The translations under genes and the position numbers were made by a program. Of a stretch of DNA of 64,000 nt, positions 1 to 59,580 are shown in pieces (position 1 is the stretch's first letter; the number at the start of each line of letters is the position of its first letter). The stretch is taken from NCBI RefSeq assembly GCF_016026235.1, contig NZ_CP065613.1, one strand, 5' to 3'. The notes under the pieces were generated by a model, which saw nothing but the letters and a program-made list of their open reading frames with translations, did no database searches and had not been told where the DNA came from. Origin of the DNA: Escherichia coli (lineage in GTDB: Bacteria > Pseudomonadota > Gammaproteobacteria > Enterobacterales > Enterobacteriaceae).

Positions 1-229
1 TGGTGTCATCCGCGCCCTGGTCAATCACCTTCAACACGTCGCTTTCGCCAATCACGCTGGCGGTAAGCTGAATACCGCCGGTTCCCCAGCCGTACGGCAT
101 CGGCATCTCACGCCCGCCAAACGGCACCTGATAACCGGGGATCGCCACCGCTTTTAAGATGGCGCGGCGGATCATGCGTTTGGTCTGCTCGTCGAGGTAG
201 GCAAAGTTGTAGCCGCTCAGATTAGCCAT
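1..229 (-). CDS. phnJ: C-P lyase subunit PhnJ, 5' portion only (gene continues past window start)
   Basis: Minus-strand ATG at 229..227; translation begins MANLSGYNFAYLDEQ, matching the PhnJ N-terminus; sits immediately downstream of phnI. Confidence 0.85.
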   Translation of the reverse strand, partial: MANLSGYNFAYLDEQTKRMIRRAILKAVAIPGYQVPFGGREMPMPYGWGTGGIQLTASVIGESDVLKVIDQGADDT

Positions 230-1286
230 GGTTCTGCTCCTGTTGCAGACGTTTGAGTAGCTCCAGTTCGGCCTGGAAATCGACGTAGTGCGGGAGTTTG
301 AGGTGCGAGACAAAGCCTGCGGCTTCGACGTTGTCGGCATGCGCCAGCACGAACTCTTCATCCTGCGCCGGGCCTGTCGCGTGCTCGCCGTACTCCGGAG
401 CCTGCAACGCACGATCGACCAGCGCCATCGCCATCGCTTTGCGCTCGCTCATGCCGAACACCAGCCCGTAGCCGCGCGTGAAGTGCGGCGGCTCACCCGG
501 CAGGTCGATAAAACCGTTGATCATTTCACACTCAGTCATCAGCAATTCGCCGACGTTCACCGCAAATCCCAGCTCTTTCGGCACAATCGACACGTCGATG
601 TAACCACTGCGGATTTCACCCGCGAACGGGTGGTTGCGCCCGTAACCGCGCTGGGTGGAGTAGGCCAGCGCCAGCAAATAGCCTTCGTCGCCGCGCATCA
701 ACTGCTGCAAACGGGAAGAACGTGAGCAGGGGTAAACCGGCGGCGTGCGGGTGATGTCATCCGGCTGTGCGCCGCTATCCTCTTCAAACTTCGCCAGCCC
801 CTGACGCGCCAGCAGGCTGAAAACGTGCGGCGACGGCTGTTGTTCGCTGTCGGCGGTGGTCAGTGTCGGCGCTTCGCCGTTTGCCAGCAGGGTGAAATCG
901 AGCAGGCGATGGGTGTAGTCGTAGGTTGGGCCAAGCAACTGGCCGCCGGGAATGTCTTTATAAACCGCCGAAATACGCCGTTCGAGACGCATCCCGGTGG
1001 TGTCGAGCGGCTCGCTTACCGCAAGCTTCGCCAGCGTGGTGCGGTAGGCGCGCAGCAGGAAAATTGCTTCGACGTTATCGCCGCTGGCCTGTTTTAGCGC
1101 CAGCGCCGCCAGTTCGCGGTCGGCAATGCCGCCTTCGGTCATCACGCGATCCACCGCAAGATTAAGCTGCTGTTCAATCTGGGCGACGCTCAGTTCGGGC
1201 AAATCGGTATCGCCCCGGCGTCGGCTCTCTTGCAGGGCGTGGGCGGCGTCGATCGCCTTCTCGCCCCCTTTCACGGCAACGTACAT
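222..1286 (-). CDS. phnI: C-P lyase subunit PhnI
   Basis: ORF 222..1406; internal start [16 protein letters not shown] gives ~354 aa; operon position between phnH and phnJ. Confidence 0.9.
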   Translation of the reverse strand: MYVAVKGGEKAIDAAHALQESRRRGDTDLPELSVAQIEQQLNLAVDRVMTEGGIADRELAALALKQASGDNVEAIFLLRAYRTTLAKLAVSEPLDTTGMRLERRISAVYKDIPGGQLLGPTYDYTHRLLDFTLLANGEAPTLTTADSEQQPSPHVFSLLARQGLAKFEEDSGAQPDDITRTPPVYPCSRSSRLQQLMRGDEGYLLALAYSTQRGYGRNHPFAGEIRSGYIDVSIVPKELGFAVNVGELLMTECEMINGFIDLPGEPPHFTRGYGLVFGMSERKAMAMALVDRALQAPEYGEHATGPAQDEEFVLAHADNVEAAGFVSHLKLPHYVDFQAELELLKRLQQEQNHG

Positions 1287-25884: not shown

Positions 25885-27531
25885 TTACTTAGTGCAGTTC
25901 GCGCACTGTTTGTTGACGATCTGCTGGAAGAAGTCGTTACCTTTGTCATCGACCAGGATAAACGCCGGGAAATCTTCTACTTCGATTTTCCAGATAGCTT
26001 CCATACCCAGCTCCGGATAAGCGACGCATTCCAGATGCTTGATGCTCTGCTGCGCCAGTACCGCCGCCGGACCGCCGATACTACCGAGGTAGAAGCCGCC
26101 GTGTTTATGACACGCGTCGGTAACCTGCTGACTGCGGTTACCTTTCGCTAGCATGATCATGCTGCCGCCGTGGGATTGCAGCAGATCCACGTAGGAGTCC
26201 ATACGACCTGCGGTGGTTGGGCCAAGTGAACCTGATGGATAACCGGCAGGGGTTTTCGCCGGACCCGCGTAGTAGATCGGGTGATCTTTGATGTACTGCG
26301 GAAGTTCTTTACCGGCGTCAATCAGCTCTTTCAGCTTGGCGTGTGCAATATCTCGGCCCACGATAATGGTGCCGGTGAGCGACAAACGAGTGGAAACCGG
26401 ATATTGCGAAAGCTGGGCGAGGATCTCTTTCATCGGGCGGTTAAGGTCGACCTTCACCGCTTCGCCTTCACCGGCCTGGCGCAGTTCTTGTGGAATGTAC
26501 TGACCTGGATTGTGTTCCAGTTTTTCGATCCAGATACCTTCGCGGTTGATTTTCGCTTTAATGTTACGGTCAGCGGAGCAGGAGACGCCCATGCCTACCG
26601 GGCAGGATGCGCCGTGACGTGGCAGACGGATAACGCGAATGTCGTGCGCGAAGTATTTACCGCCAAACTGCGCGCCAAGACCGAGTTTCTGGGCCTCTTC
26701 CAGCAGTTCCTGTTCCAGCTGGACATCGCGGAACGCCTGACCATGTTCGTTCCCTTCCGTCGGCAGTTCATCGTAATAGTGAGCGCTTGCTAACTTAACG
26801 GTTTTCAGGTTGGTTTCCGCAGACGTACCGCCAATCACAAACGCGATATGGTACGGCGGGCAGGCTGCAGTACCGAGGGTACGCATTTTCTCGACGAGGA
26901 AGTTTTTCAGTTTGCCGGGAGTCAGCAGGGCTTTGGTTTCCTGGTAGAGATAGGTTTTGTTGGCAGAGCCGCCGCCTTTCGCAACGCAAAGGAATTTGTA
27001 CTCATCGCCATCTACCGCGTACAGGTCGATTTGTGCAGGCAGGTTAGTGCCGGTGTTGACCTCTTTGTACATGTCCAGCGCCGCGTTTTGCGAGTAGCGC
27101 AGGTTATCCTCGATATAGGTGTTATAGACGCCTTTCGACAGCGCTTCTTCATCACCGCCACCGGTCCACACGCGCTGGCCTTTTTTACCGACGATGATCG
27201 CGGTGCCGGTATCCTGGCAGGTCGGCAGCACGCCTTTGGCGGCGATTTCGGAGTTTCTTAAGAATTGCAGTGCCACGTACTTGTCGTTTTCGCTGGCTTC
27301 TGGATCGTGAAGAATAGCCGCAACCTGTTTCTGGTGTGCCGGACGGAGCATGAAAGAAGCGTCGTGAAAGGCTTGCTGCGCCAGCAGGGTCAGGGCTTCT
27401 GGTTCCACTTTCAGGATGGTTTCGCCGTCGAAGTCGGCAACGCTAACGTAATCGGAAGTGAGTAGATAGTATTCGGTATTGTCTTTCCCCATCGGGAAAG
27501 GTGCCTGGTAGATAAAGGGTTTGTTTGACAT
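25885..27531 (-). CDS. fumB: class I (Fe-S) fumarate hydratase, anaerobic
   Basis: 548 aa. Confidence 0.93.
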
Positions 27532-32289: not shown

Positions 32290-32562
32290 ATGGAAATACG
32301 CGAAGGCCACAATAAATTTTACATTAATGACGAACAAGGCAAGCAAATCGCTGAAATTGTCTTTGTGCCGACTGGAGAGAATTTAGCGATTATCGAACAT
32401 ACCGATGTCGATGAAAGCCTGAAAGGGCAGGGGATTGGTAAACAGCTGGTTGCAAAAGTCGTGGAAAAAATGCGTCGGGAAAAACGAAAAATTATCCCAT
32501 TATGTCCATTTGCGAAACACGAATTTGATAAAACGCGGGAGTATGATGATATTCGTAGTTGA
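32290..32562 (+). CDS. yjdJ: GNAT-like small acetyltransferase YjdJ
   Basis: 90 aa; GQGIGKQL acetyl-CoA binding-like motif. Confidence 0.75.
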
Positions 32563-32788
32563 TGGAAGAGTACAGAGCCACGATATTTTTCATGCTCTCC
32601 GCGGAGTGATGCAGGAGAGCATCTGAAGGGTCGGGGGATGCACAAAGAATGGGCAGAGAGCGCGTTTTTTTGTCCCAAGTCATCCCCTTTACTGAGCAAA
32701 AAAAAGAATATCTCCTATATGAGAATCATCAATCGGGGTTAATAAGTTTTGCGTCCCCAGAGCGTTCAATATTGATAGGAGTCATATT

Positions 32789-33085
32789 ATGGAAGGTAAA
32801 AACAAGTTCAATACTTATGTTGTTTCTTTTGATTATCCATCATCTTATTCCTCAGTGTTCTTAAGGTTAAGATCATTGATGTATGATATGAATTTCTCCT
32901 CTATCGTGGCTGATGAATATGGGATACCACGACAATTGAATGAAAACTCCTTCGCAATAACGACATCGTTAGCCGCAAGTGAAATCGAGGATTTAATCAG
33001 GCTCAAATGCTTAGACTTACCGGATATTGATTTTGACCTCAACATTATGACAGTTGATGACTATTTCCGTCAGTTTTACAAGTAG
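32789..33085 (+). CDS. ghoS: type V antitoxin GhoS (endoribonuclease)
   Basis: 98 aa ORF immediately upstream of ghoT-like small hydrophobic ORF. Confidence 0.8.
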   Translation: MEGKNKFNTYVVSFDYPSSYSSVFLRLRSLMYDMNFSSIVADEYGIPRQLNENSFAITTSLAASEIEDLIRLKCLDLPDIDFDLNIMTVDDYFRQFYK

Positions 33086-33112
33086 CCAGGAAGGATAAGA
33101 AGAACATAAAAA

Positions 33113-33286
33113 ATGGCACTATTCTCTAAAATATTAATTTTTTATGTGATTGGTGTGAACATATCCTTTGTCATTATCTGGTTTATCTCACATGAGAAAA
33201 CACATATTCGTTTACTTAGTGCATTCCTGGTCGGAATAACCTGGCCAATGAGTCTGCCTGTGGCATTACTTTTTTTTCTCTTTTAG
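33113..33286 (+). CDS. ghoT: small membrane toxin GhoT (57 aa)
   Basis: ATG 33113; MALFSKILIFYVIGVNISFVIIWFISHEKTHIRLLSAFLVGITWPMSLPVALLFFLF; stop TAG 33284..33286; not in the supplied ORF track (<60 aa). Confidence 0.75.
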   Translation: MALFSKILIFYVIGVNISFVIIWFISHEKTHIRLLSAFLVGITWPMSLPVALLFFLF

Positions 33287-33404
33287 GAGCTGTAGTTGAG
33301 TGGACCCGCTGGTTATCGTGAAACGAAGCGTCTCTCCTCAAAACTGGATTTGCGGAACGATGAACGAAGCAGTCGCCTGACTGCTTCGTTCATTAAAGTG
33401 AAAA

Positions 33405-34922
33405 TTATTTCTGTGGGCGCATCGCCGGGAAGAGAATAACGTCGCGAATAGTATGACTGTTTGTAAACAGCATAATCATTCGGTCGATACCAATACCCAG
33501 ACCAGCGGTTGGCGGCAGACCATATTCCAGCGCAGTCACGTAATCTTCGTCATAGAACATGGCTTCGTCGTCACCTGCAGCTTTAGCGTTAACCTGTTCC
33601 TGGAAACGTTCAGCCTGATCTTCTGCGTCGTTTAATTCGCTAAAACCATTACCGATTTCACGACCACCGATGAAGAATTCAAAACGGTCGGTGATTTCTG
33701 GGTTAACATCATTACGGCGTGCCAGCGGTGACACTTCTGCCGGATATTCCGTAATAAAGGTTGGCTGAATCAGATGTGCTTCTGCCACTTCATCAAAGAT
33801 CTCCGTGACAATACGTCCCAGCCCCCAGCTTTTCTCTACCGTAATACCGATAGATTCAGCTAATTCTTTAGCAGCATCAAAATTATCCAGGTCGGCCATA
33901 TCGGTTTCTGGACGATATTTTTTGATTGCTTCGCGCATGGTGAGTTTTTCAAACGGTTTGCCGAAATCAAACACATGCTCGCCATAAGTGACTTTAGTGG
34001 TACCCAGAACCTCTTGTGCCAGGGTGCGGAACAGGGACTCTGTCAGTTCAATCAAATCGTGGTAATCCGCATACGCCATGTAGAGTTCCATCATTGTGAA
34101 CTCAGGATTATGGCGAACAGAAATACCTTCATTACGGAAGTTACGGTTGATTTCGAATACCCGTTCAAAACCGCCTACAACCAGACGTTTCAGATACAGC
34201 TCTGGCGCGATACGCAGATACATATCTAAATCCAGAGCATTATGATGGGTAATAAACGGGCGAGCAGATGCCCCACCTGGAATTACCTGCATCATCGGGG
34301 TTTCTACTTCCATAAAGCCGCGCGCGACCATGAACTGACGGATAGCGGCCAGAATTTTTGAACGGACAACGAACGTTTGACGGGATTTATCGTTAGCGAT
34401 GAGGTCCAGATAACGTTGACGATAACGGACTTCCTGATCCTGCAGACCATGGAATTTATCTGGTAAAGGACGTAGTGCTTTAGTCAGCAGGCGCAGCTCA
34501 GTACAGTGAATGGAAAGCTCACCCGTTTGCGTCTTAAACAGCGTACCGCGGGCACCGATAATGTCACCCAGATCCCATTTTTTAAACTGATCGTTATAAA
34601 CACCTTCTGGCAGGCTATCTCTTGCAACGTACAGTTGAATACGGCCACCGACATCCTGCAACGTTACAAAGGAGGCTTTCCCCATGATACGACGGGTCAT
34701 CATTCGGCCAGCAACCGAGACTTCAATGTTTAAGGATTCCAGTTCCTGGTTATTCTTCGCATCAAACTCTTCGTGCAACTGGTCAGAGGTATGGTCGCGG
34801 CGAAAATCATTGGGAAACGCCACACCTTGCTGACGTAGTGCCGCCAGTTTTTCGCGGCGATTTCTCAGTTCATCGTTAAAATCAATAGCCTCATTGGCTC
34901 CCCGTGTTTCTTGTTCAGACAT
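33405..34922 (-). CDS. lysU: lysyl-tRNA synthetase, inducible isoform
   Basis: Start [26 protein letters not shown]; 505 aa class II aaRS. Confidence 0.92.
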
Positions 34923-36674: not shown

Positions 36675-38822
36675 TTATTTTTTGCTTTCTTCTTTCAATA
36701 CCTTAACGGTATAGCGGCCATCAGCCTGACGGTATGCACCGTGAATATCGGTTTCAAAGCCCGGATAGTGAGCGCCGATTTCACACAGCATCTGCAGGAA
36801 CTCCAGAACCGGACGGCTTTCTTCGGTGATCATTTCACCCGGCATTACCAGAGGAACTCCCGGCGGATATGGAAGGATCATATTGGCGTTAATACGACCT
36901 ACCATTTCGTCGAGGTAAACTTCTTCGGTCATACCGTGCAGCTCTTTCTGGAACGCAGCATACGGAGTCATTACCATTGTCGGCAGCACTTCAAATGCGC
37001 GATACATCAGATCCGGCAGATTGTGGTGAACAATCAGTTTGTGGATATTCTGAGCCAGTTCCTGAATACGCATGTTTTCATAGAATTCAGGATCTTCACG
37101 ATACAGAGACGGCAGCATGTTTTTCACACGCAGGTTCAGGTCGAACGCACGTTTGAAGTCAGTCAGAGCACGCAGCAGGCTCAGTGCTTTGGTCTTATCG
37201 ATACCGATGCTGAACAGGAACAGCAGGTTATACGGACCGGTTTTCTCAACAACGATGCCATGTTCGTCGAGGTATTTCGCCACGATGCTGGCCGGAATAC
37301 CAAAGTCGCTCATGGTGCCGTCTTTTTCCATCCCCGGAGTCAGCAGGGTGACTTTGATCGGGTCAAGATACATGTGCTCGTTATCGATGTTTTTGAAGCC
37401 GTGCCAGGTGCTGTCAGAACGCAGCGGCCAGCATTCAGTCGTATCGATATGATCCGGCTGCCATACATCAAAGAACCAGCCATCAGATTCCGTTCTCAGA
37501 CGTTTGATCTCTTTACGGAATTTGATCGCACGTTCAATGGAACCGTTGATCAGACGTTTACCTGCATTGCCTTTCATCATCGCCGCAGCGGTTTCAGTGG
37601 ACGCCACGATACCGTAGTGAGGAGAAGTGGTGGTGTGCATCATGTAGGCTTCGTTAAAGGTTTCTTCGTTTACGTCACCTTTAACGTGGATCATGGAAGC
37701 CTGAGAGAACGCCGCCAGCAGTTTGTGAGTGGACTGGGTTTCGTAAATCACTTTCCCTTCTACACGGCCACCGCTCATACCGCATTTACCTTCGTAAATC
37801 GGTGAGAAGTTGGTGTAAGGCACCCACGCGGAGTCAAAGTGGATGGATTTCACATCCAGTGTTTTCTTGATGAAGTCGGTGTTGTACAGCAGACCATCAT
37901 AGGTAGAGTTGGTAATTACAGCATGTACCGGCCAGGTTGCGTTTGGTGTTTCTTTCACGCGCTTAGCAATGGTAGCGTGCTGGAATTCACTCTGTGGGAT
38001 ACCACCAAGAATACCGTAAGCGTTACGGGTCGGGCGGAAATAGATTGGCGTAACATCGCTCATCATCATCAGGTGGGTCAGCGATTTGTGGCAGTTACGG
38101 TCAATCAGAATGGTGCTGCCTGCCGGAGCAGAGTACATGCCAACAATTTTGTTCGCAGTGGAAGTACCGTTGGTCACCATGTAGCTGCGGTCTGCGTTAA
38201 AGACGCGAGCGATATACTGTTCTGCTTCTTTGTGTGGACCACTGTGATCCAGCAGAGAACCCAGTTCAGATACTGAAATGGAAATATCAGATTTCATGGT
38301 ATTCGGACCAAAGAAATCATAGAACAGGCTACCTACCGGGCTTTTCTGAAATGCAGTACCGCCCATGTGACCAGGAGTACAGAAAGTATATTTACCTTCA
38401 CGAACATATTTAAACAGTGCTTTAGTCAGCGGAGGCAGAATAGTGTTGATATATTCGTCAGTGGTCTGCTTGATCTTATTAGCAATATCTTCAGCAGCAC
38501 CCAGCGCATATTCAAAGAAGCTAATCTGTAAACGCAGGTCATTCAGGCTTACATCGAGAGTGGAATACGTATTAGCGAACGCGTACAACGGCAGGTTCTC
38601 GTTCATTTTGCTAATTTCTTCGCACAGCTCGAGATTATATTTATCCCAGTCAAAAATAACGCCGCACAGACGCGCATTGTTTTCGATCAGTTTTAATAAG
38701 TCGTCACGGTCGTTCGGGTAAACAATCTGGAAGTTCAGACGTTCAAGCGCGCGATGAAGTTCACGGATGGGTTCTTCTTTAAAATAAACCCCCATGTGAT
38801 TCAATATTGCAATAACGTTCAT
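36675..38822 (-). CDS. cadA: inducible lysine decarboxylase
   Basis: Start MNVIAILNHMGVYFKEEPIRELH; 715 aa; intact. Confidence 0.94.
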   Translation of the reverse strand: MNVIAILNHMGVYFKEEPIRELHRALERLNFQIVYPNDRDDLLKLIENNARLCGVIFDWDKYNLELCEEISKMNENLPLYAFANTYSTLDVSLNDLRLQISFFEYALGAAEDIANKIKQTTDEYINTILPPLTKALFKYVREGKYTFCTPGHMGGTAFQKSPVGSLFYDFFGPNTMKSDISISVSELGSLLDHSGPHKEAEQYIARVFNADRSYMVTNGTSTANKIVGMYSAPAGSTILIDRNCHKSLTHLMMMSDVTPIYFRPTRNAYGILGGIPQSEFQHATIAKRVKETPNATWPVHAVITNSTYDGLLYNTDFIKKTLDVKSIHFDSAWVPYTNFSPIYEGKCGMSGGRVEGKVIYETQSTHKLLAAFSQASMIHVKGDVNEETFNEAYMMHTTTSPHYGIVASTETAAAMMKGNAGKRLINGSIERAIKFRKEIKRLRTESDGWFFDVWQPDHIDTTECWPLRSDSTWHGFKNIDNEHMYLDPIKVTLLTPGMEKDGTMSDFGIPASIVAKYLDEHGIVVEKTGPYNLLFLFSIGIDKTKALSLLRALTDFKRAFDLNLRVKNMLPSLYREDPEFYENMRIQELAQNIHKLIVHHNLPDLMYRAFEVLPTMVMTPYAAFQKELHGMTEEVYLDEMVGRINANMILPYPPGVPLVMPGEMITEESRPVLEFLQMLCEIGAHYPGFETDIHGAYRQADGRYTVKVLKEESKK

Positions 38823-38901: not shown

Positions 38902-40236
38902 TTAATGTGCGTTAGACGCGGTGTGGTTATCCATTGAGTGGCTCTGGCGCTCGTGCATTTTGCGAGCGTAGAACATCAGGATAATCAGGCTGACGATGAA
39001 GGTACCTGCCAGCTCGAAGGAGCTTGCGCCCATCAGCGCGATGAAGCAGAACACGCAACCCAGTACAGAGCAGATCAGGCTGACAAAGTTGCGGATGTTA
39101 ACGCCTTCAAAACGAATCAGGTCAACGCAAGAGTAGAAGTACGGCAGCATAGTCAGCAGTACTGCGATACCGGTCAGTTCACCGAACAGGTCAGATGCTT
39201 TACCACCGGCAGAGTTCATCAGAGTGATGAGGATCATCAGGGCAGTCATTTTCACTGCAGCCAGCAGCAGACCTTTTTTCGGAATACCGTTGCTGTCGAC
39301 TTCACCATAAACTTTCGGGAAGTTACCGTCGTTAGCGGCACGTACACCTGCCTGGCCTACCAACATCATCCAGGATCCCAGAGAAGTCAGGCACGCAAAG
39401 GCGGTGAATGCAGAAACCAGCGGCGCAGCCCAGTTACCGAGGATGGTTGAAGCACTGATTGCAAACGGAGCACCGGAAGCTGCCATTACAGAAGATGGAT
39501 ACATACCGGAAAGCACCTGAGTCGCAGCGATGTAAACAATACCTGCTAAACCAGTACCCAGCATGGTTGCCAGCGGAACGGTACGTTTCGGGTTTTTAAC
39601 CATACCAGTACTTACTGCTGCGGATTCAACACCCACGAAGGCCCACAGGCAGAGCAGAATACTTTTAATGATCGCATGACCATCAGTGGTATCCGCAGTA
39701 TTCCAGTTAGCTGCATAAGTTGCCGCATCAAACCAATGCCAGCCAACAATAGCAGTCATCACCACAGGAATAAGAACCAGCACCAGACCAATAGTGGTTA
39801 AACGGCTTACCCAAGTACCGCCGAGCATATTTACAAAGGTAAATACCCAGACGATAGCAATACAGGCGATACCCGCCGGAACAGGATCATTTAATACTGG
39901 GAAGAAGGTGGAAAGATAAGATACCGCGGTAATACCAATCGCCAGGTTACCAATCCAGTTAGCATGGTAATAAAGAACACCTGTCTGAAAACCAAATGCA
40001 GGGGAAATTTCTCCGGCATAAGCAATTGGGCCACCTTGTTGCGGGTTTTTTGTTGCCAGTCGGGCATATACATACGCCAGCGACATTGCACCAATAATAG
40101 AGATAATCCAACCCCAGATAGCAATACCACCGATACTTGCTAGGTTCGCAGGTAATAATGCAATACCGCTCCCCATCATATTACCGGCAACAACACCGGT
40201 ACAGGCAAATAGCCCGATCTTCTTGGCAGAACTCAT
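38902..40236 (-). CDS. cadB: lysine:cadaverine antiporter
   Basis: 444 aa APC transporter; intact. Confidence 0.93.
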   Translation of the reverse strand: MSSAKKIGLFACTGVVAGNMMGSGIALLPANLASIGGIAIWGWIISIIGAMSLAYVYARLATKNPQQGGPIAYAGEISPAFGFQTGVLYYHANWIGNLAIGITAVSYLSTFFPVLNDPVPAGIACIAIVWVFTFVNMLGGTWVSRLTTIGLVLVLIPVVMTAIVGWHWFDAATYAANWNTADTTDGHAIIKSILLCLWAFVGVESAAVSTGMVKNPKRTVPLATMLGTGLAGIVYIAATQVLSGMYPSSVMAASGAPFAISASTILGNWAAPLVSAFTAFACLTSLGSWMMLVGQAGVRAANDGNFPKVYGEVDSNGIPKKGLLLAAVKMTALMILITLMNSAGGKASDLFGELTGIAVLLTMLPYFYSCVDLIRFEGVNIRNFVSLICSVLGCVFCFIALMGASSFELAGTFIVSLIILMFYARKMHERQSHSMDNHTASNAH

Positions 40237-40601
40237 GCTCTTCTCCTAATTTCATTTTTGAATTTGGAGTCCGGGTCATGATGTATAACTATTTCCTGAC
40301 CAGACCAAACTGGCGCTAAGATTACTCACGAAAAAAGGATTAATCCTAAAGATTAGGTGAAATAACACAAAAGTTTCTGTAAGTGAGAACTTGAGGTTTT
40401 TTATTAACACATCAGGATCGCAAGTTGATATCATGAAAAGATAAACATTCAATGTTTACAATAGATTGCGTGACGTCTTCTGGTTAAATTTATGTAATAA
40501 AAATTATGCGGCAAATAAATTGCCGCAACATATTATACCAACAGGAACATACAAAAACTCAACAACAAATATTCCCTAGCATGAATCAACCCAGGAGTTA
40601 C
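40237..40601 (-). promoter_or_regulatory. Pcad promoter/operator region (cadBA control region)
   Basis: Intergenic cadC-cadB; AT-rich with perfect palindrome tgcggcaaataaattgccgca at 40507..40527. Confidence 0.5.
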
Positions 40602-41510
40602 TTATTCTGAAGCGAGAAATTTGTCGAGATAAGGTACAACATAAGGAACAGAAGTCTGGAATATACCATTTTCAATCCAGTAAAGGGTGTTTGCCCCTGG
40701 GCGTAAATTAAAGGCGGTGAGATATGCATCAGCCGCTTCCCGGTTCATCCCCTTCATTTCATAAACCTTGCCAAGCAACACATAATTTAGCCAGGACATT
40801 TCAAGATCAATGCCAGTATTTATCGCCTGGTAAGACTCATCTGTTTTACCTTTTACCAGAGCACTGACCGCTTTTATTTGATATATAATGGACAGGTTGT
40901 TCAATTCCGGCAGTGTAACAATGTTGTCTATTTCTGTGTTCAGTGCTGCTAATTGTTTTTCATCTAAAGGGTGTTGAGAATGGCGCACGATATCAACTAA
41001 TGCTTTTTCTGCTCTCGCGTAGGTAAATTCTGGGGATGATTGAACAATCTCACCTAATAATTCACTGGCACGATTCAATGATTTGTCATCGCCATGCAGT
41101 AAATAATCATGAGCCTGATAAAAATTAGTTAATAACGCACCACGATGAGGCAAAATTTGCTGGAGCGTCTCCTGCATTCGTTGTGGCCACGGTTGGTTTA
41201 ACGCTTTTGATAAACTCTCCAGTAAATCATTTTGAATCGCCAGCTGATTACCGTTAGTGATGACATAACGTTTATCCAGCATGGTTGAACCATCTGCATT
41301 GTCTACCAATTTTATCGACATAAAGCATTGTTGAGCACGGTATTGGCGCTGATTAACAAAGGCAATAGATAATGTTTTACCGGAACTGCTCGGTTCATCA
41401 ATGTTGTAGTTGATTTTGTCATGCACCATAAAGGTGGAGAAGGTGTTAAGTGATGTCGCCACCAAATCACCCACGCCTATCGCGTAAGAGAGCTGATACG
41501 GGGAACTCCA

Positions 41511-42803
41511 CTGAGGGATCCCCAGAAAATTTAGTAAACCATTATCATATTGGTATACCGTTGCTGTAGAACTTTCAGCCCTGCGTCAAGTGACAGTGTG
41601 TTTAGTATGAGTGGAGAATGTCGAATCACATTCTCCGCCAGTTTTAATAACGAGATGACTCGCCTGTGCTTCACTGTATTTGCCTGATATTTATGATGTA
41701 TCCCTTTGTTTTCCAGGCTGAAACCGCTTAACCACATAATGATACTGGCTAATGTTGCGATCAGACTCAATACCGTGACCCGCCCGGATGAATGACTGGC
41801 ACCAAACCGTAGTCCAAATCCCCAGCGAGGATTTTTTCATCCCTGAAATTTTGCTCAATTTGCATTCTACGGCTGTATAATTTCATTACCTGTTTTGGCG
41901 AGAACTCAGTACTGTTTGTGAAAATAAACCATGGTGATTTCCCGGCAGTACGAGCTTTAGCCGTCACCGATGGTCTGGTTGCTCTTTCCTTCGAGCGTTT
42001 AAATCTACGACCTTTAGGCTTACTTTTATAAAGATAAAAATGCCCTTCATGTTGTGCATTTTTATCTCGACCCAGCAGGCCTTCACCTAAATAAATTGCT
42101 GTCGTTGATGCTTTTGTGCCTGAGTCCGACACCTTTTCCCAGCCATTACCAACATTGTAATAATGATTGCCCAGTACCCGGCAAATATAGGTCCAGCCAC
42201 GGGAGCGGAGCTGTTGGAACCATCGCCCCTGAAAACCGGCATCTGTAATAACAATGACATCAGTCCCGGGGGAAAAGCACTCAGCAAGCGATTCCAGAAA
42301 ACGCTCATGTACATCTGCATTCGCTGTCTGTGATGATGGAACGACACAACTCATCAACGGTAAAGAACGCCCGTCACATGCCAGGCTTGCCCGCAAAAGC
42401 TGAAAACGAGAGGCATGATAAGCACTCCAGTCAATGAGTATCACAACACGAGACATTCCCCGCGTAATCTTTTGGGTAATTCGCTGAAAAATGGTGGAAA
42501 CCTCATTTTGCAAATGTCGATTCCCCAACAGTCGATCCACCCGCTTTATTTTGTTTTTAACTGATGCCGTACCGGTTAAATGACGCCCGATACTGGTAAG
42601 TGTGAGGGAAGCGCCATTTATTACAGCATTAGTTGCGTCAATCAGTGATTTTTGACGGTAAAGATGCAAAGGGGCCAGTATGTTGTTAAGGAAATTTTGG
42701 CATAATGAACGTGCAGGCATAGTGGTGATCTCCTTGAAATTGTTAGCACAATCAATTAGATCACATCTCACTATGCCTGTCTTGTTTTCTGGGGATTCCT
42801 CAG
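41511..42803 (-). mobile_element. IS10-like insertion sequence (IS4 family), ~1293 bp, inserted in cadC
   Basis: Imperfect terminal inverted repeats CTGAGGGATCCCCAGAAAA (41511..) and revcomp CTGAGGAATCCCCAGAAAA (..42803); flanking direct repeat gggaactcc(a) at 41501..41510 and 42804..42813; encodes IS10-related transposase. Confidence 0.85.
41531..42720 (-). pseudogene. IS10-family DDE transposase, disrupted by a frameshift near 41797..41808
   Basis: ATG 42720 preceded by AAGGAGAT SD; motifs KRVDRLLGNRHL, ILIDWS, ITDAGF, YSRRMQIEQNFRDEK align with IS10 transposase; frame ends at 41767 and C-terminal homology (QANTVKHRRV...) continues in another frame (41531..41770). Confidence 0.75.
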
Positions 42804-44018
42804 GGGAACTCCAGCTGTTACAACTTTTATTTACCATATTAATGTCAATATCGCGTGGATTGAGCAAAATACGCGATTTGCTCATCGGAAGACGTGTATC
42901 AAGACTTGAAAACGCTACCAGTGCTACACAGATACCTAAGGACAACAGGAAAAAAAACCATACCCAAAAGGTAGTGAATCGTTTGCTTTTAACTGGGGAT
43001 TGTTCAGGTGGCGTTGCGGTGTTTTGAATGTTAAGGCTGTGGGAGGGAGAATCTGTGGCAGGAACCGCCTCTGGTATAGGGGGAGGCGAAGATAGCATTA
43101 TTTCCTCTCCCTCTTCTTCGCTGTACCAGATAACCGGCACCATTAATTTATAGCCGCGCTTTGGTACAGTAGCGATATAGACAGGACTATCTTCATCATT
43201 ATCTTTTAATGAATTACGTAGTTCTGAGATACTCTGCGTCACAACGTGATTGGTGACAATACTTCTCTTCCAGACATTATCGATAAGTTCATCCCTGCTA
43301 AGTACTTCGCCACTGTGTTGAGCAAAGAAAACCAGAAGATCGATTAATCTCGGCTCAAGGGTAAGTTGACGCCCATTGCGGCTAATTTGGTTTATGGACG
43401 GAGTAACAAGCCATTCGCCAACGCGAACTACAGGTTGTTGCATAATAGAAACTCATTCGAAAAGGGAATGATGCAATGATAATTGCCACAACCTATTTTT
43501 ACCATCTATAGATGGGTTTATTTACATATTATTGGTGAATGCAAGACGTTATTTTTACCAGCCATAAACTTCTTGATTACATGGTATTACGAAAGGATTT
43601 TACTGAGAACCAGAAGTAATATTCCTTACCATCAAAATTCATCATCTTTGCCAAAGAAAAATGTTCAGAAAATAATCCATGGAAAATTGTCCGGAGCGCT
43701 TACTATTTTAATGGATTGTTAGTCTTTGCATGAGCAAGGGGACTGATACATTTCTCTTTGTTCTCATTCAGAAAATCTCATCAGTCGCCGTTCAGACCGG
43801 TGTTGTGCTTTATGGATGCGTTACGCTCCTGATGACGTCATTTGACGTTCAACAGCATCACGGGGTCGCACGACATTTCACGTCAGTTAGTGCTATAGCT
43901 CAGGAACAAATTTTCCCGAATTGGGATATGCCCGCAAATTGCTGGTGATGTGGGGAGAATCTGGTTGAGTTCGGTAGAATTGATTTGGCGGCAGAACGCT
44001 TAAATCGTGGCGTCCTGA

Positions 44019-58208: not shown

Positions 58209-58244
58209 GCAATATGATCCTACCCACGTAATATGGACACAGGC

Positions 58245-59111
58245 CTAAGCGAGGTTCTGGTTTTCAAATTGTTCCGGACTGAGGCCGCCACACCAACTGT
58301 GCCGCCGCCACCGATTGTAATCACATTCGATATAATTAAACACCGTTGCCCGCATTATTTCCCAGCTGATAAAGTGTTCTCCATGGATACATTCCACTTT
58401 CAGCGAATGAAAGAAGCTTTCCACGCAGGCATTATCGTAGCAGCAACCTTTTGCGCTCATACTTCCACGCAGATTATGCCGCTTCAGTTGCGCCTGATAA
58501 TCTGCTGAACAGTACTGGCCTCCACGGTCCGTGTGAACGATAACGTTCCGGGGCCTCTTACGCCGCCACAGCGCCATCTGCAGGGCATCGCAGGCCAGTT
58601 GCGCCGTCATGCGTGGCGACATTGACCAGCCAATAACGGCACGTGACCACAGGTCAATGACCACTGCCAGATACAGCCAGCCTTCATCTGTACGTAAGTA
58701 CGTGATGTCTCCTGCCCACTTCTGGTTCGGGCCACTGGCGTAAAAATCCTGCTCCAACAGATTTTCTGACACAGGCAGGCCGTGTGCGCGGTAGCTGACC
58801 GGGCTGAACTTCCGGGAGGCATTTGCCCTCAGTCCCTGACGGCGCAGGCTTGCCGCCACGGTTTTTACGTTAAAGGGGTAACCCTGAGCACGCAGTTCAT
58901 CCGTCAGGCGTGGGGCACCGTAACGCTGTTTTGACCGGGTAAAAGCCGCGAGGACAACGCTGTCGCAGTGTTGGCGGAACTGCTGACGCGTGCTTATCCT
59001 TGTCCGCCGCTGACACCACGTATACCAGCCGCTGCGGGCCACCCGGAACACGCGGCACATTGCTTTGATGCTGAACTCAGCCTGATGTTTTTCAATAAAG
59101 ACATACTTCAT
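58245..59111 (-). CDS. insF: IS3 transposase OrfB (DDE integrase domain)
   Basis: 288 aa; [21 protein letters not shown]...; ATGA overlap with orfA stop. Confidence 0.9.
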
Positions 59112-59407
59112 TTCAGGCGCTTCGCGAAGTATGTCGCGGCCTTTTGGAGGATAGCCAGCTCTTCATCCCGTTCTGCCAGCTGGCGTTTGAGACGTGCAAT
59201 CTCGGTAGACATCTCCAGTTCACGTTCAGAAGACGTCTGCTGATTTTGCTGTTTACTGCGCCAGTTGTAGAGCTGTGATTCATACAGGCTGAGTTCACGG
59301 GCTGCGGCAGTAACACCGATGCGTTCAGCAAGCTTCAGGGCTTCACTGCGAAATTCAGGCGAATGCTGTTTACGGGGTTTTTTACTGGTTGATACTGTTT
59401 TTGTCAT
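59108..59407 (-). CDS. insE: IS3 transposase OrfA (HTH)
   Basis: Start [29 protein letters not shown]; ~99 aa. Confidence 0.88.
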
Positions 59408-59580
59408 GTGAGTCACCTCTGACTGAGAGTTTACTCACTTAGCCGCGTGTCCACTATTGCTGGGTAAGATCAATAACGGTACGACAGCTGTGTCGTGCCG
59501 TTTGTTTTCTCTGCGATAGTCACAAAGGTAATAGTTGAAATTCCCCTGCCACCTGGCAAAATATCCGTTCAACCATCAGC

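Follow-up and report, generated by a model that had tools for sequence, protein, structure and literature searches.

The cadC gene of the E. coli DNA analysed here is split after codon 214 by an insertion sequence of the ISEc60 family, which lies in a perfect 10-bp target-site duplication, and the cadB and cadA genes are intact. From the sequence and the literature, we infer that the strain is very probably CadC-null, silent for cadBA and lysine-decarboxylase negative, making no cadaverine, although ldcC, a second lysine decarboxylase gene beyond the window, could provide residual weak activity. The window is the whole stretch of 64,000 nucleotides that was analysed (contig NZ_CP065613.1). The observation of an IS-split cadC next to intact cadBA was confirmed, and all sequence claims stand. 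The allele is new with respect to element and site; its class has already been described.

Structure of the interrupted cadC gene

Transcribed on the minus strand, cadC runs from its start at 43443 to its stop at 40602. The parts of the split gene are as follows.

42804..43443, minus strand: cadC 5' fragment, codons 1-214, with the wHTH DNA-binding domain, linker, TM helix, R184 and C208 (from the ORF and its translation)
40602..41510, minus strand: cadC 3' fragment, codons 215-512 and stop, the periplasmic pH/cadaverine sensor including C272
41501..41510, unstranded: left copy of the target-site duplication, 10 bp, GGGAACTCCA
42804..42813, unstranded: right copy of the target-site duplication, 10 bp, GGGAACTCCA

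The 5' fragment retained the OmpR-type winged-helix domain (Pfam Trans_reg_C at residues 24-100, E = 2e-18), matched positions 1-221 of the NCBIfam CadC profile NF007540, and carried 27 periplasmic residues beyond the TM helix. The C-terminal periplasmic sensor domain is present on the 3' fragment, which matched profile positions 221-515 (E = 1e-127) and lacks both a start codon and an export signal of its own. In place of one uninterrupted 512-aa CadC polypeptide, we found 1293 bp of IS sequence and the 10-bp duplication after codon 214. On this structure the split cadC is a predicted pseudogene, a non-functional member of CadC, the ToxR-like membrane-integrated one-component activator.

When mapped on wild-type cadC, the two flanks overlapped by exactly the 10 bp GGGAACTCCA, and the two copies are identical. 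The repeat appears to be 11 bp long because the terminal base of the IS is G, but its true length is 10 bp. Since 10-bp repeats were also found at six of the seven other ISEc60 copies examined, the repeat in cadC is a footprint of transposition and not a chance repeat. Excision of the IS and one repeat copy in silico gave an open cadC of 1539 bp (512 codons), the product of which differed from K-12 CadC solely by K77N and K328Q. An earlier note on this DNA had described the split of cadC into these two fragments by about 1.29 kb of IS sequence, which was confirmed, with the IS now placed at 41511..42803. It had also given the flanking repeat as 9-10 bp; the direct repeat is real, but the shorter length is wrong.

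The remainder of the cad locus was found to be undamaged:

38902..40236, minus strand: cadB, lysine/cadaverine antiporter, intact (444 aa)
36675..38822, minus strand: cadA, inducible lysine decarboxylase, intact (715 aa)
40237..40601, minus strand: Pcad, including Cad1/Cad2 where CadC binds, and the terminator of cadC (40507-40527), both intact (from K-12 alignment and a terminator scan)

The CadB and CadA proteins are full length, as the earlier note had it, and 100% identical to those of K-12, with 8 and 11 silent nucleotide differences in the respective genes. The adiA-adiY-adiC module proved equally intact: all three genes are full length, AdiC is identical to K-12, and AdiY and AdiA carry one and two conservative substitutions, respectively. 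The centre of the Cad1 palindrome has G where K-12 has A. Damage to the promoter by this A-to-G change was considered and rejected, the variant being common among complete genomes: other complete genomes, O157:H7 among them, share the 61-bp Cad1 region at 100% identity, and the band of at least 99% identity held 535 genomes. Thus, Pcad is a natural variant here.

The window is collinear with positions 4,319,378 to 4,381,230 of K-12 MG1655, with two structural differences only, one of them in cadC. A second IS (IS3) is also present in the window. pheU lies upstream of cadC, and no island is inserted there. The closest genome was FDAARGOS_943, with 100.0% identity over a 24.5-kb query; it differed from the window by about 20 SNPs and 3 indels over about 40 kb aligned.

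The ISEc60 element and its target

The inserted element and its parts are listed below.

41511..42803, minus strand: ISEc60-family insertion sequence, 1293 bp, IS4 family, IS10 group (from nucleotide identity, NCBIfam and Pfam)
42784..42803, unstranded: terminal inverted repeat at the transposase-start end, reverse complement CTGAGGAATCCCCAGAAAAC
41511..41530, unstranded: terminal inverted repeat at the transposase-stop end, CTGAGGGATCCCCAGAAAAT
41531..42720, minus strand: transposase gene, frameshifted (from alignment to a 1294-bp reference copy and residue count)
42708..42786, minus strand: hairpin in read-through RNA entering from cadC (from folding and the 11-nt perfect inverted repeat I13)

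The element was 99.9% identical over its full length (1293 of 1294 bp) to copies annotated as 'IS4-like element ISEc60 family transposase' in the genomes of the EIEC O96:H19 strain CFSAN029787, FDAARGOS_943 and a small number of others. Its terminal inverted repeats are about 20 bp long and imperfect, and its transposase is oriented in the same direction as cadC. The transposase matched NCBIfam transpos_IS4_2 and Pfam DDE_Tnp_1, and the Y-2-R-3-E-6-K motif of IS4-type DDE transposases was found in it (YSRRMQIEQNFRDEK). As compared to the 1294-bp reference copies, one base is missing from a run of seven A (A6 here, at about 41832), and the frame breaks after residue 296 of 396, just beyond this motif. 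Owing to this frameshift the copy in cadC, which does not have the intact transposase of an autonomous ISEc60, is probably non-autonomous, unless the missing A is a homopolymer sequencing error.

IS10 is 1329 bp long, generates a 9-bp duplication at the target NGCTNAGCN, and forms in read-through transcripts a hairpin that conceals the start of its transposase. ISEc60 shares with IS10/Tn10 an IS4-family DDE transposase with YREK, termini of the CTGA type, a preference for symmetric targets and a start-hiding hairpin, whereas it differs in length (1293-1294 bp), in the 10-bp duplication, in its target (GGGAWWWCCM as against NGCTNAGCN) and in having only 36% protein identity. IS10 proper was therefore rejected as the identity of the insertion, its transposase being 36% identical to those of IS10A and ISVsa5, its length 1293 bp as against 1329 bp and its duplication 10 bp as against 9 bp. 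The description 'IS10-like' in the earlier note holds at the level of the family (IS4 family, IS10 group), but the element itself is ISEc60. The predicted hairpin in RNA reading through from cadC had a folding energy of -40.1 kcal/mol (z = -5.0), with none of 200 shuffles equally stable, and hides both the transposase RBS (42730-42735) and its ATG (42718-42720). It resembles the IS10 fold-back inhibition, which would protect against outside transcription, and ribosomes started at cadC would pass through it.

Counting the cadC copy, 10-bp duplications flanked seven of the eight ISEc60 copies examined. The seven duplicated targets (GGGAACTCCA, GGGGAAACCC, GGGATAACCT, GGGATAACCA, GGGAAAACCA, GGGATATCCC and CGGAAATCCC) gave a strong, near-palindromic consensus, GGGAWWWCCM, and ISEc60 thus appears to have inserted in a near-consensus target inside cadC. 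Relaxed to GGGRWNNCCN, the motif occurred 15 times in 62.7 kb of window sequence and once in the 5.4-kb cadCBA locus, precisely at the insertion site; none was found in cadA, cadB or Pcad. These counts are merely indicative, because the motif was partly derived from the cadC site itself. The single occurrence nevertheless offers a simple mechanical account of why ISEc60 would strike the regulator and spare cadA and cadB.

An IS copy misplaced into cadC by the assembler is hardly conceivable as an explanation of the split. The related genome FDAARGOS_943 has multiple copies of ISEc60, and the difference in homopolymer length in the present copy could be a polishing error. However, the 10 bp of cadC are duplicated perfectly, with the length and motif typical of the family, and misassembly makes no such duplications; moreover, the remaining window has just three indels in 40 kb from FDAARGOS_943.

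Predicted effect on cadBA expression

The 5' fragment of cadC continues in frame into the IS and forms one long ORF with the transposase.

41767..43443, minus strand: chimeric ORF of 558 codons, comprising CadC(1-214), 27 IS-encoded residues, transposase(1-296) and a 21-residue frameshift tail

When the 558-aa fusion was looked up by exact sequence in a public gene-position index, no record was found. By our account, a real transposition of ISEc60 has cut the ToxR-like membrane-integrated activator CadC after residue 214. The N-terminal part has its DNA-binding domain and membrane anchor but no periplasmic sensor/dimerisation domain, and its reading frame continues into the IS. With no CadC left that can dimerise and respond to the signal, Pcad would stay silenced by H-NS, and the intact cadB and cadA would in consequence be silent at low pH with lysine. 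In a cadC deletion strain, cadBA did not respond to pH 5.8 plus lysine (PMC11484849). The loss of CadC-dependent cadBA induction predicted in the earlier note is thus supported as a prediction, both by the sequence and by the literature (PMC11484849; PMC4156367).

It is highly unlikely that the insertion instead deregulates cadBA, either through trimming of the CadC(1-214)::IS product to CadC1-184 or through dimerisation of the fusion, with signal-independent or partial expression as the outcome. The trimming variant draws on Chen et al. 2024, who propose that DegP/DegQ cut at R184 to give an active membrane-bound CadC1-184 (PMC11484849). The fusion is in frame and has R184-L185 as well as C208, and since C272 is missing from it, the inhibitory C208-C272 disulfide is impossible. 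As the fragment keeps R184 and probably has a misfolded periplasmic tail, processing by DegP/DegQ is conceivable; it might thus be converted into a stub like CadC1-184, with a small chance of some retained activity. CadC1-184 bound Pcad more tightly in vitro in the same study, but in vivo activation by it is not shown in the accessible text (PMC11484849).

The dimerisation variant has a precedent in CadC with a dimerising protein in place of the sensor, which activated Pcad constitutively (PMC8514426). The location of the dimerising partner mattered, however: with the HA4 monobody as sensor, Pcad was 66-fold higher when the dimerising ligand was in the periplasm than when the same ligand was excluded from it and present in the cytoplasm (PMC8514426). 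Export and periplasmic folding of a cytoplasmic-type polypeptide of 340 residues, as the fusion would demand, is unlikely. The DNA-binding domain alone is monomeric, and dimerisation via the periplasmic domain and the TM region has been reported as essential for CadC activity (PMC5430869). Natural cadC mutants of EIEC are lysine-decarboxylase negative (PMC4156367), which also argues against deregulation by the present allele and for silent cadBA.

There is a slim chance that the allele is more than a simple null. In one form of this proposal the fusion would be converted to CadC1-184 and render cadBA signal-blind. In the other, independent of the first, precise excision of the IS would make the locus a reversible OFF state; as cadBA and all other cadC sequence are undamaged, and 10-bp repeats bound the IS, such excision could restore cadC. 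A signal-blind or reversible allele, if real, would be a natural in vivo test of the dimerisation and proteolytic-activation models of CadC. A promoter carried by the IS and directed outward to cadBA was examined and rejected. Near the IS end we found just a weak 9/12 match, promoter-like matches in the region did not exceed the shuffled expectation, and the cadC terminator sits between the IS and Pcad.

Loss of cadC in related strains and in known systems

Enteroinvasive E. coli (EIEC) are lysine-decarboxylase negative mainly through inactivation of cadC, with cadBA intact and the cad region collinear with K-12 (Casalino 2003 as summarised in PMC4156367 and PMC5723341). The EIEC strains HN280, 4608 and 53638, in which cadBA is intact and cadC defective, regain cadaverine when given cadC, and strain 6.81 is known to carry IS1 within cadC (PMC4156367). 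The present locus agrees with this cadC-only silencing in its inactivated cadC and its intact, K-12-collinear cadBA, as well as in its predicted phenotype, a lack of lysine decarboxylase activity that cadC supplied in trans would rescue. The inactivated cad locus of EIEC/Shigella pathoadaptive silencing is thus found here in the form of a split cadC. It differs from the EIEC cases in the element, ISEc60, and in the site after codon 214, and it is known from a chromosomal window alone. The earlier note had presented the regulator-only knockout as a notable allele, which is overstated, since EIEC have already been described as preferentially taking this route (Casalino 2003, via PMC4156367 and PMC5723341). 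What the allele adds is one more independent case, with another IS at another site, of convergent CadC loss in Shigella-like E. coli.

The laboratory allele cadC::Tn10 of the reporter strain EP314, the standard CadC-null, cadBA-silent host for complementation (PMC3096576), likewise has cadC disrupted by an IS10-family element. There, however, the insertion is the composite Tn10 with IS10 ends and a 9-bp duplication, whereas the present one is a single natural ISEc60, flanked by a duplication of 10 bp and encoding a transposase 36% identical to that of IS10. Erosion of the cad locus in Shigella has taken several forms: S. flexneri and S. boydii have a deletion of cadA, in S. dysenteriae the gene carries a frameshift, and in S. 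sonnei it is IS-interrupted (PMC3739510, PMC5723341). The lack of cadaverine, predicted in our case, and the involvement of insertion sequences are common to both, but Shigella has usually lost its structural genes or had them destroyed, whereas here they are untouched and encode proteins identical to those of K-12. In practice, an E. coli strain that is lysine-decarboxylase negative, as predicted here, may be mistaken for Shigella by diagnostic schemes.

A query spanning the cadC-ISEc60 junction was covered to at least 80% in none of 5,426 complete RefSeq E. coli genomes, and an exact search with a 39-mer of the left junction gave no matches in GTDB representative genomes and JGI metagenome contigs. 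The cadC gene of FDAARGOS_943 carries no IS but two derived 1-bp deletions, which are two of the three indels between the strains in 40 kb. By sequence, then, cadC was lost twice, independently, in one narrow lineage. Two different knockouts of the same gene in so narrow a lineage are good evidence for a loss that is favoured, or tolerated at the least, and we infer that an enteroinvasive E. coli background favoured it.

Alternatively, the insertion may be neutral, a side effect of ISEc60 bursting and of the targets it prefers, with no selected (pathoadaptive) loss, cadC having the only suitable target in the locus. We regard this as rather unlikely, though the element does have a strong, near-palindromic target for which cadCBA holds the single site described above, 38 places in the FDAARGOS_943 chromosome record match ISEc60, and another IS, the IS3, lies in the same window. 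Target preference, however, accounts for the place of landing in the locus and not for the persistence of the allele. Moreover, cadC of FDAARGOS_943 was knocked out by another mechanism, and convergent loss of cadC is documented across EIEC serotypes (PMC4156367, PMC5723341), both of which favour selection over a neutral origin.

The plasmid of FDAARGOS_943 contains sepA, virK, capU, an IpaH-type NEL fragment, IS600 and ISSfl3. These genes point to a pINV-like replicon, which is suggestive for the lineage, the source window itself being chromosomal only. In addition to its two cadC deletions, FDAARGOS_943 has the substitution V12G in CadA.

Target choice of ISEc60

A strong, near-palindromic 10-bp target for ISEc60, GGGAWWWCCM, was found at the cadC insertion site (window 41501..41510) and at six loci carrying other copies of the element (L002, L003, L010, L012, L013 and L014). 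The single match to the loose target motif in the cadCBA locus was the ISEc60 insertion site itself, a count to be read with the motif's partial derivation from that site.

Fusion frame, hairpin and transposase frame

Two features span the junction of cadC with ISEc60 or the transposase start:

41767..43443, minus strand: chimeric ORF of 558 codons, CadC(1-214) joined in frame to the transposase across the IS end
42708..42786, minus strand: stable hairpin in read-through RNA (-40 kcal/mol, z = -5)

The transposase part of the fusion would be placed on the periplasmic side. Folding of the read-through RNA is predicted to bury the transposase RBS and start codon within the hairpin, which resembles the fold-back inhibition of IS10. 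The window's copy has A6 in place of A7 on the coding strand at about 41832, shifting the transposase frame past residue 296 of 396. The shortened run is either a genuine decay mutation or a homopolymer error.

Comparison with K-12 and the sister genome

The window differed structurally from K-12 by the cadC insertion and one IS3 copy, and by no others:

58215..59472: IS3 copy, 1258 bp, inserted between ecnB and gdx in intergenic sequence; direct repeat of 3 bp, ATA

In the closest genome, FDAARGOS_943 (L004), cadC is free of the IS and carries two 1-bp deletions, an IS5-family element separates lysU from dtpC, and rdcA is truncated. None of these was present in the window when compared with L004, where the three differences lie at (L004 coordinates):

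32522..34058
26119..26963
1..606

Substitutions in cadC and Pcad

At window 43213, codon 77 of cadC reads K77N, within the CadC DNA-binding domain. The 61-mer containing this change was common to only 2 of 5,238 complete genomes, and FDAARGOS_943 retains K at this residue. K77N may represent drift following cadC inactivation. At the central base (window 40450) of the Cad1 quasi-palindrome, part of the CadC-binding region of Pcad, the window reads TTGAAT as against TTAAAT in K-12. A consensus of TTAxxxxT has been proposed for CadC, and its TTA is lost through this change. The TTGAAT variant is nonetheless frequent in lysine-decarboxylase-positive lineages, such as O157:H7.
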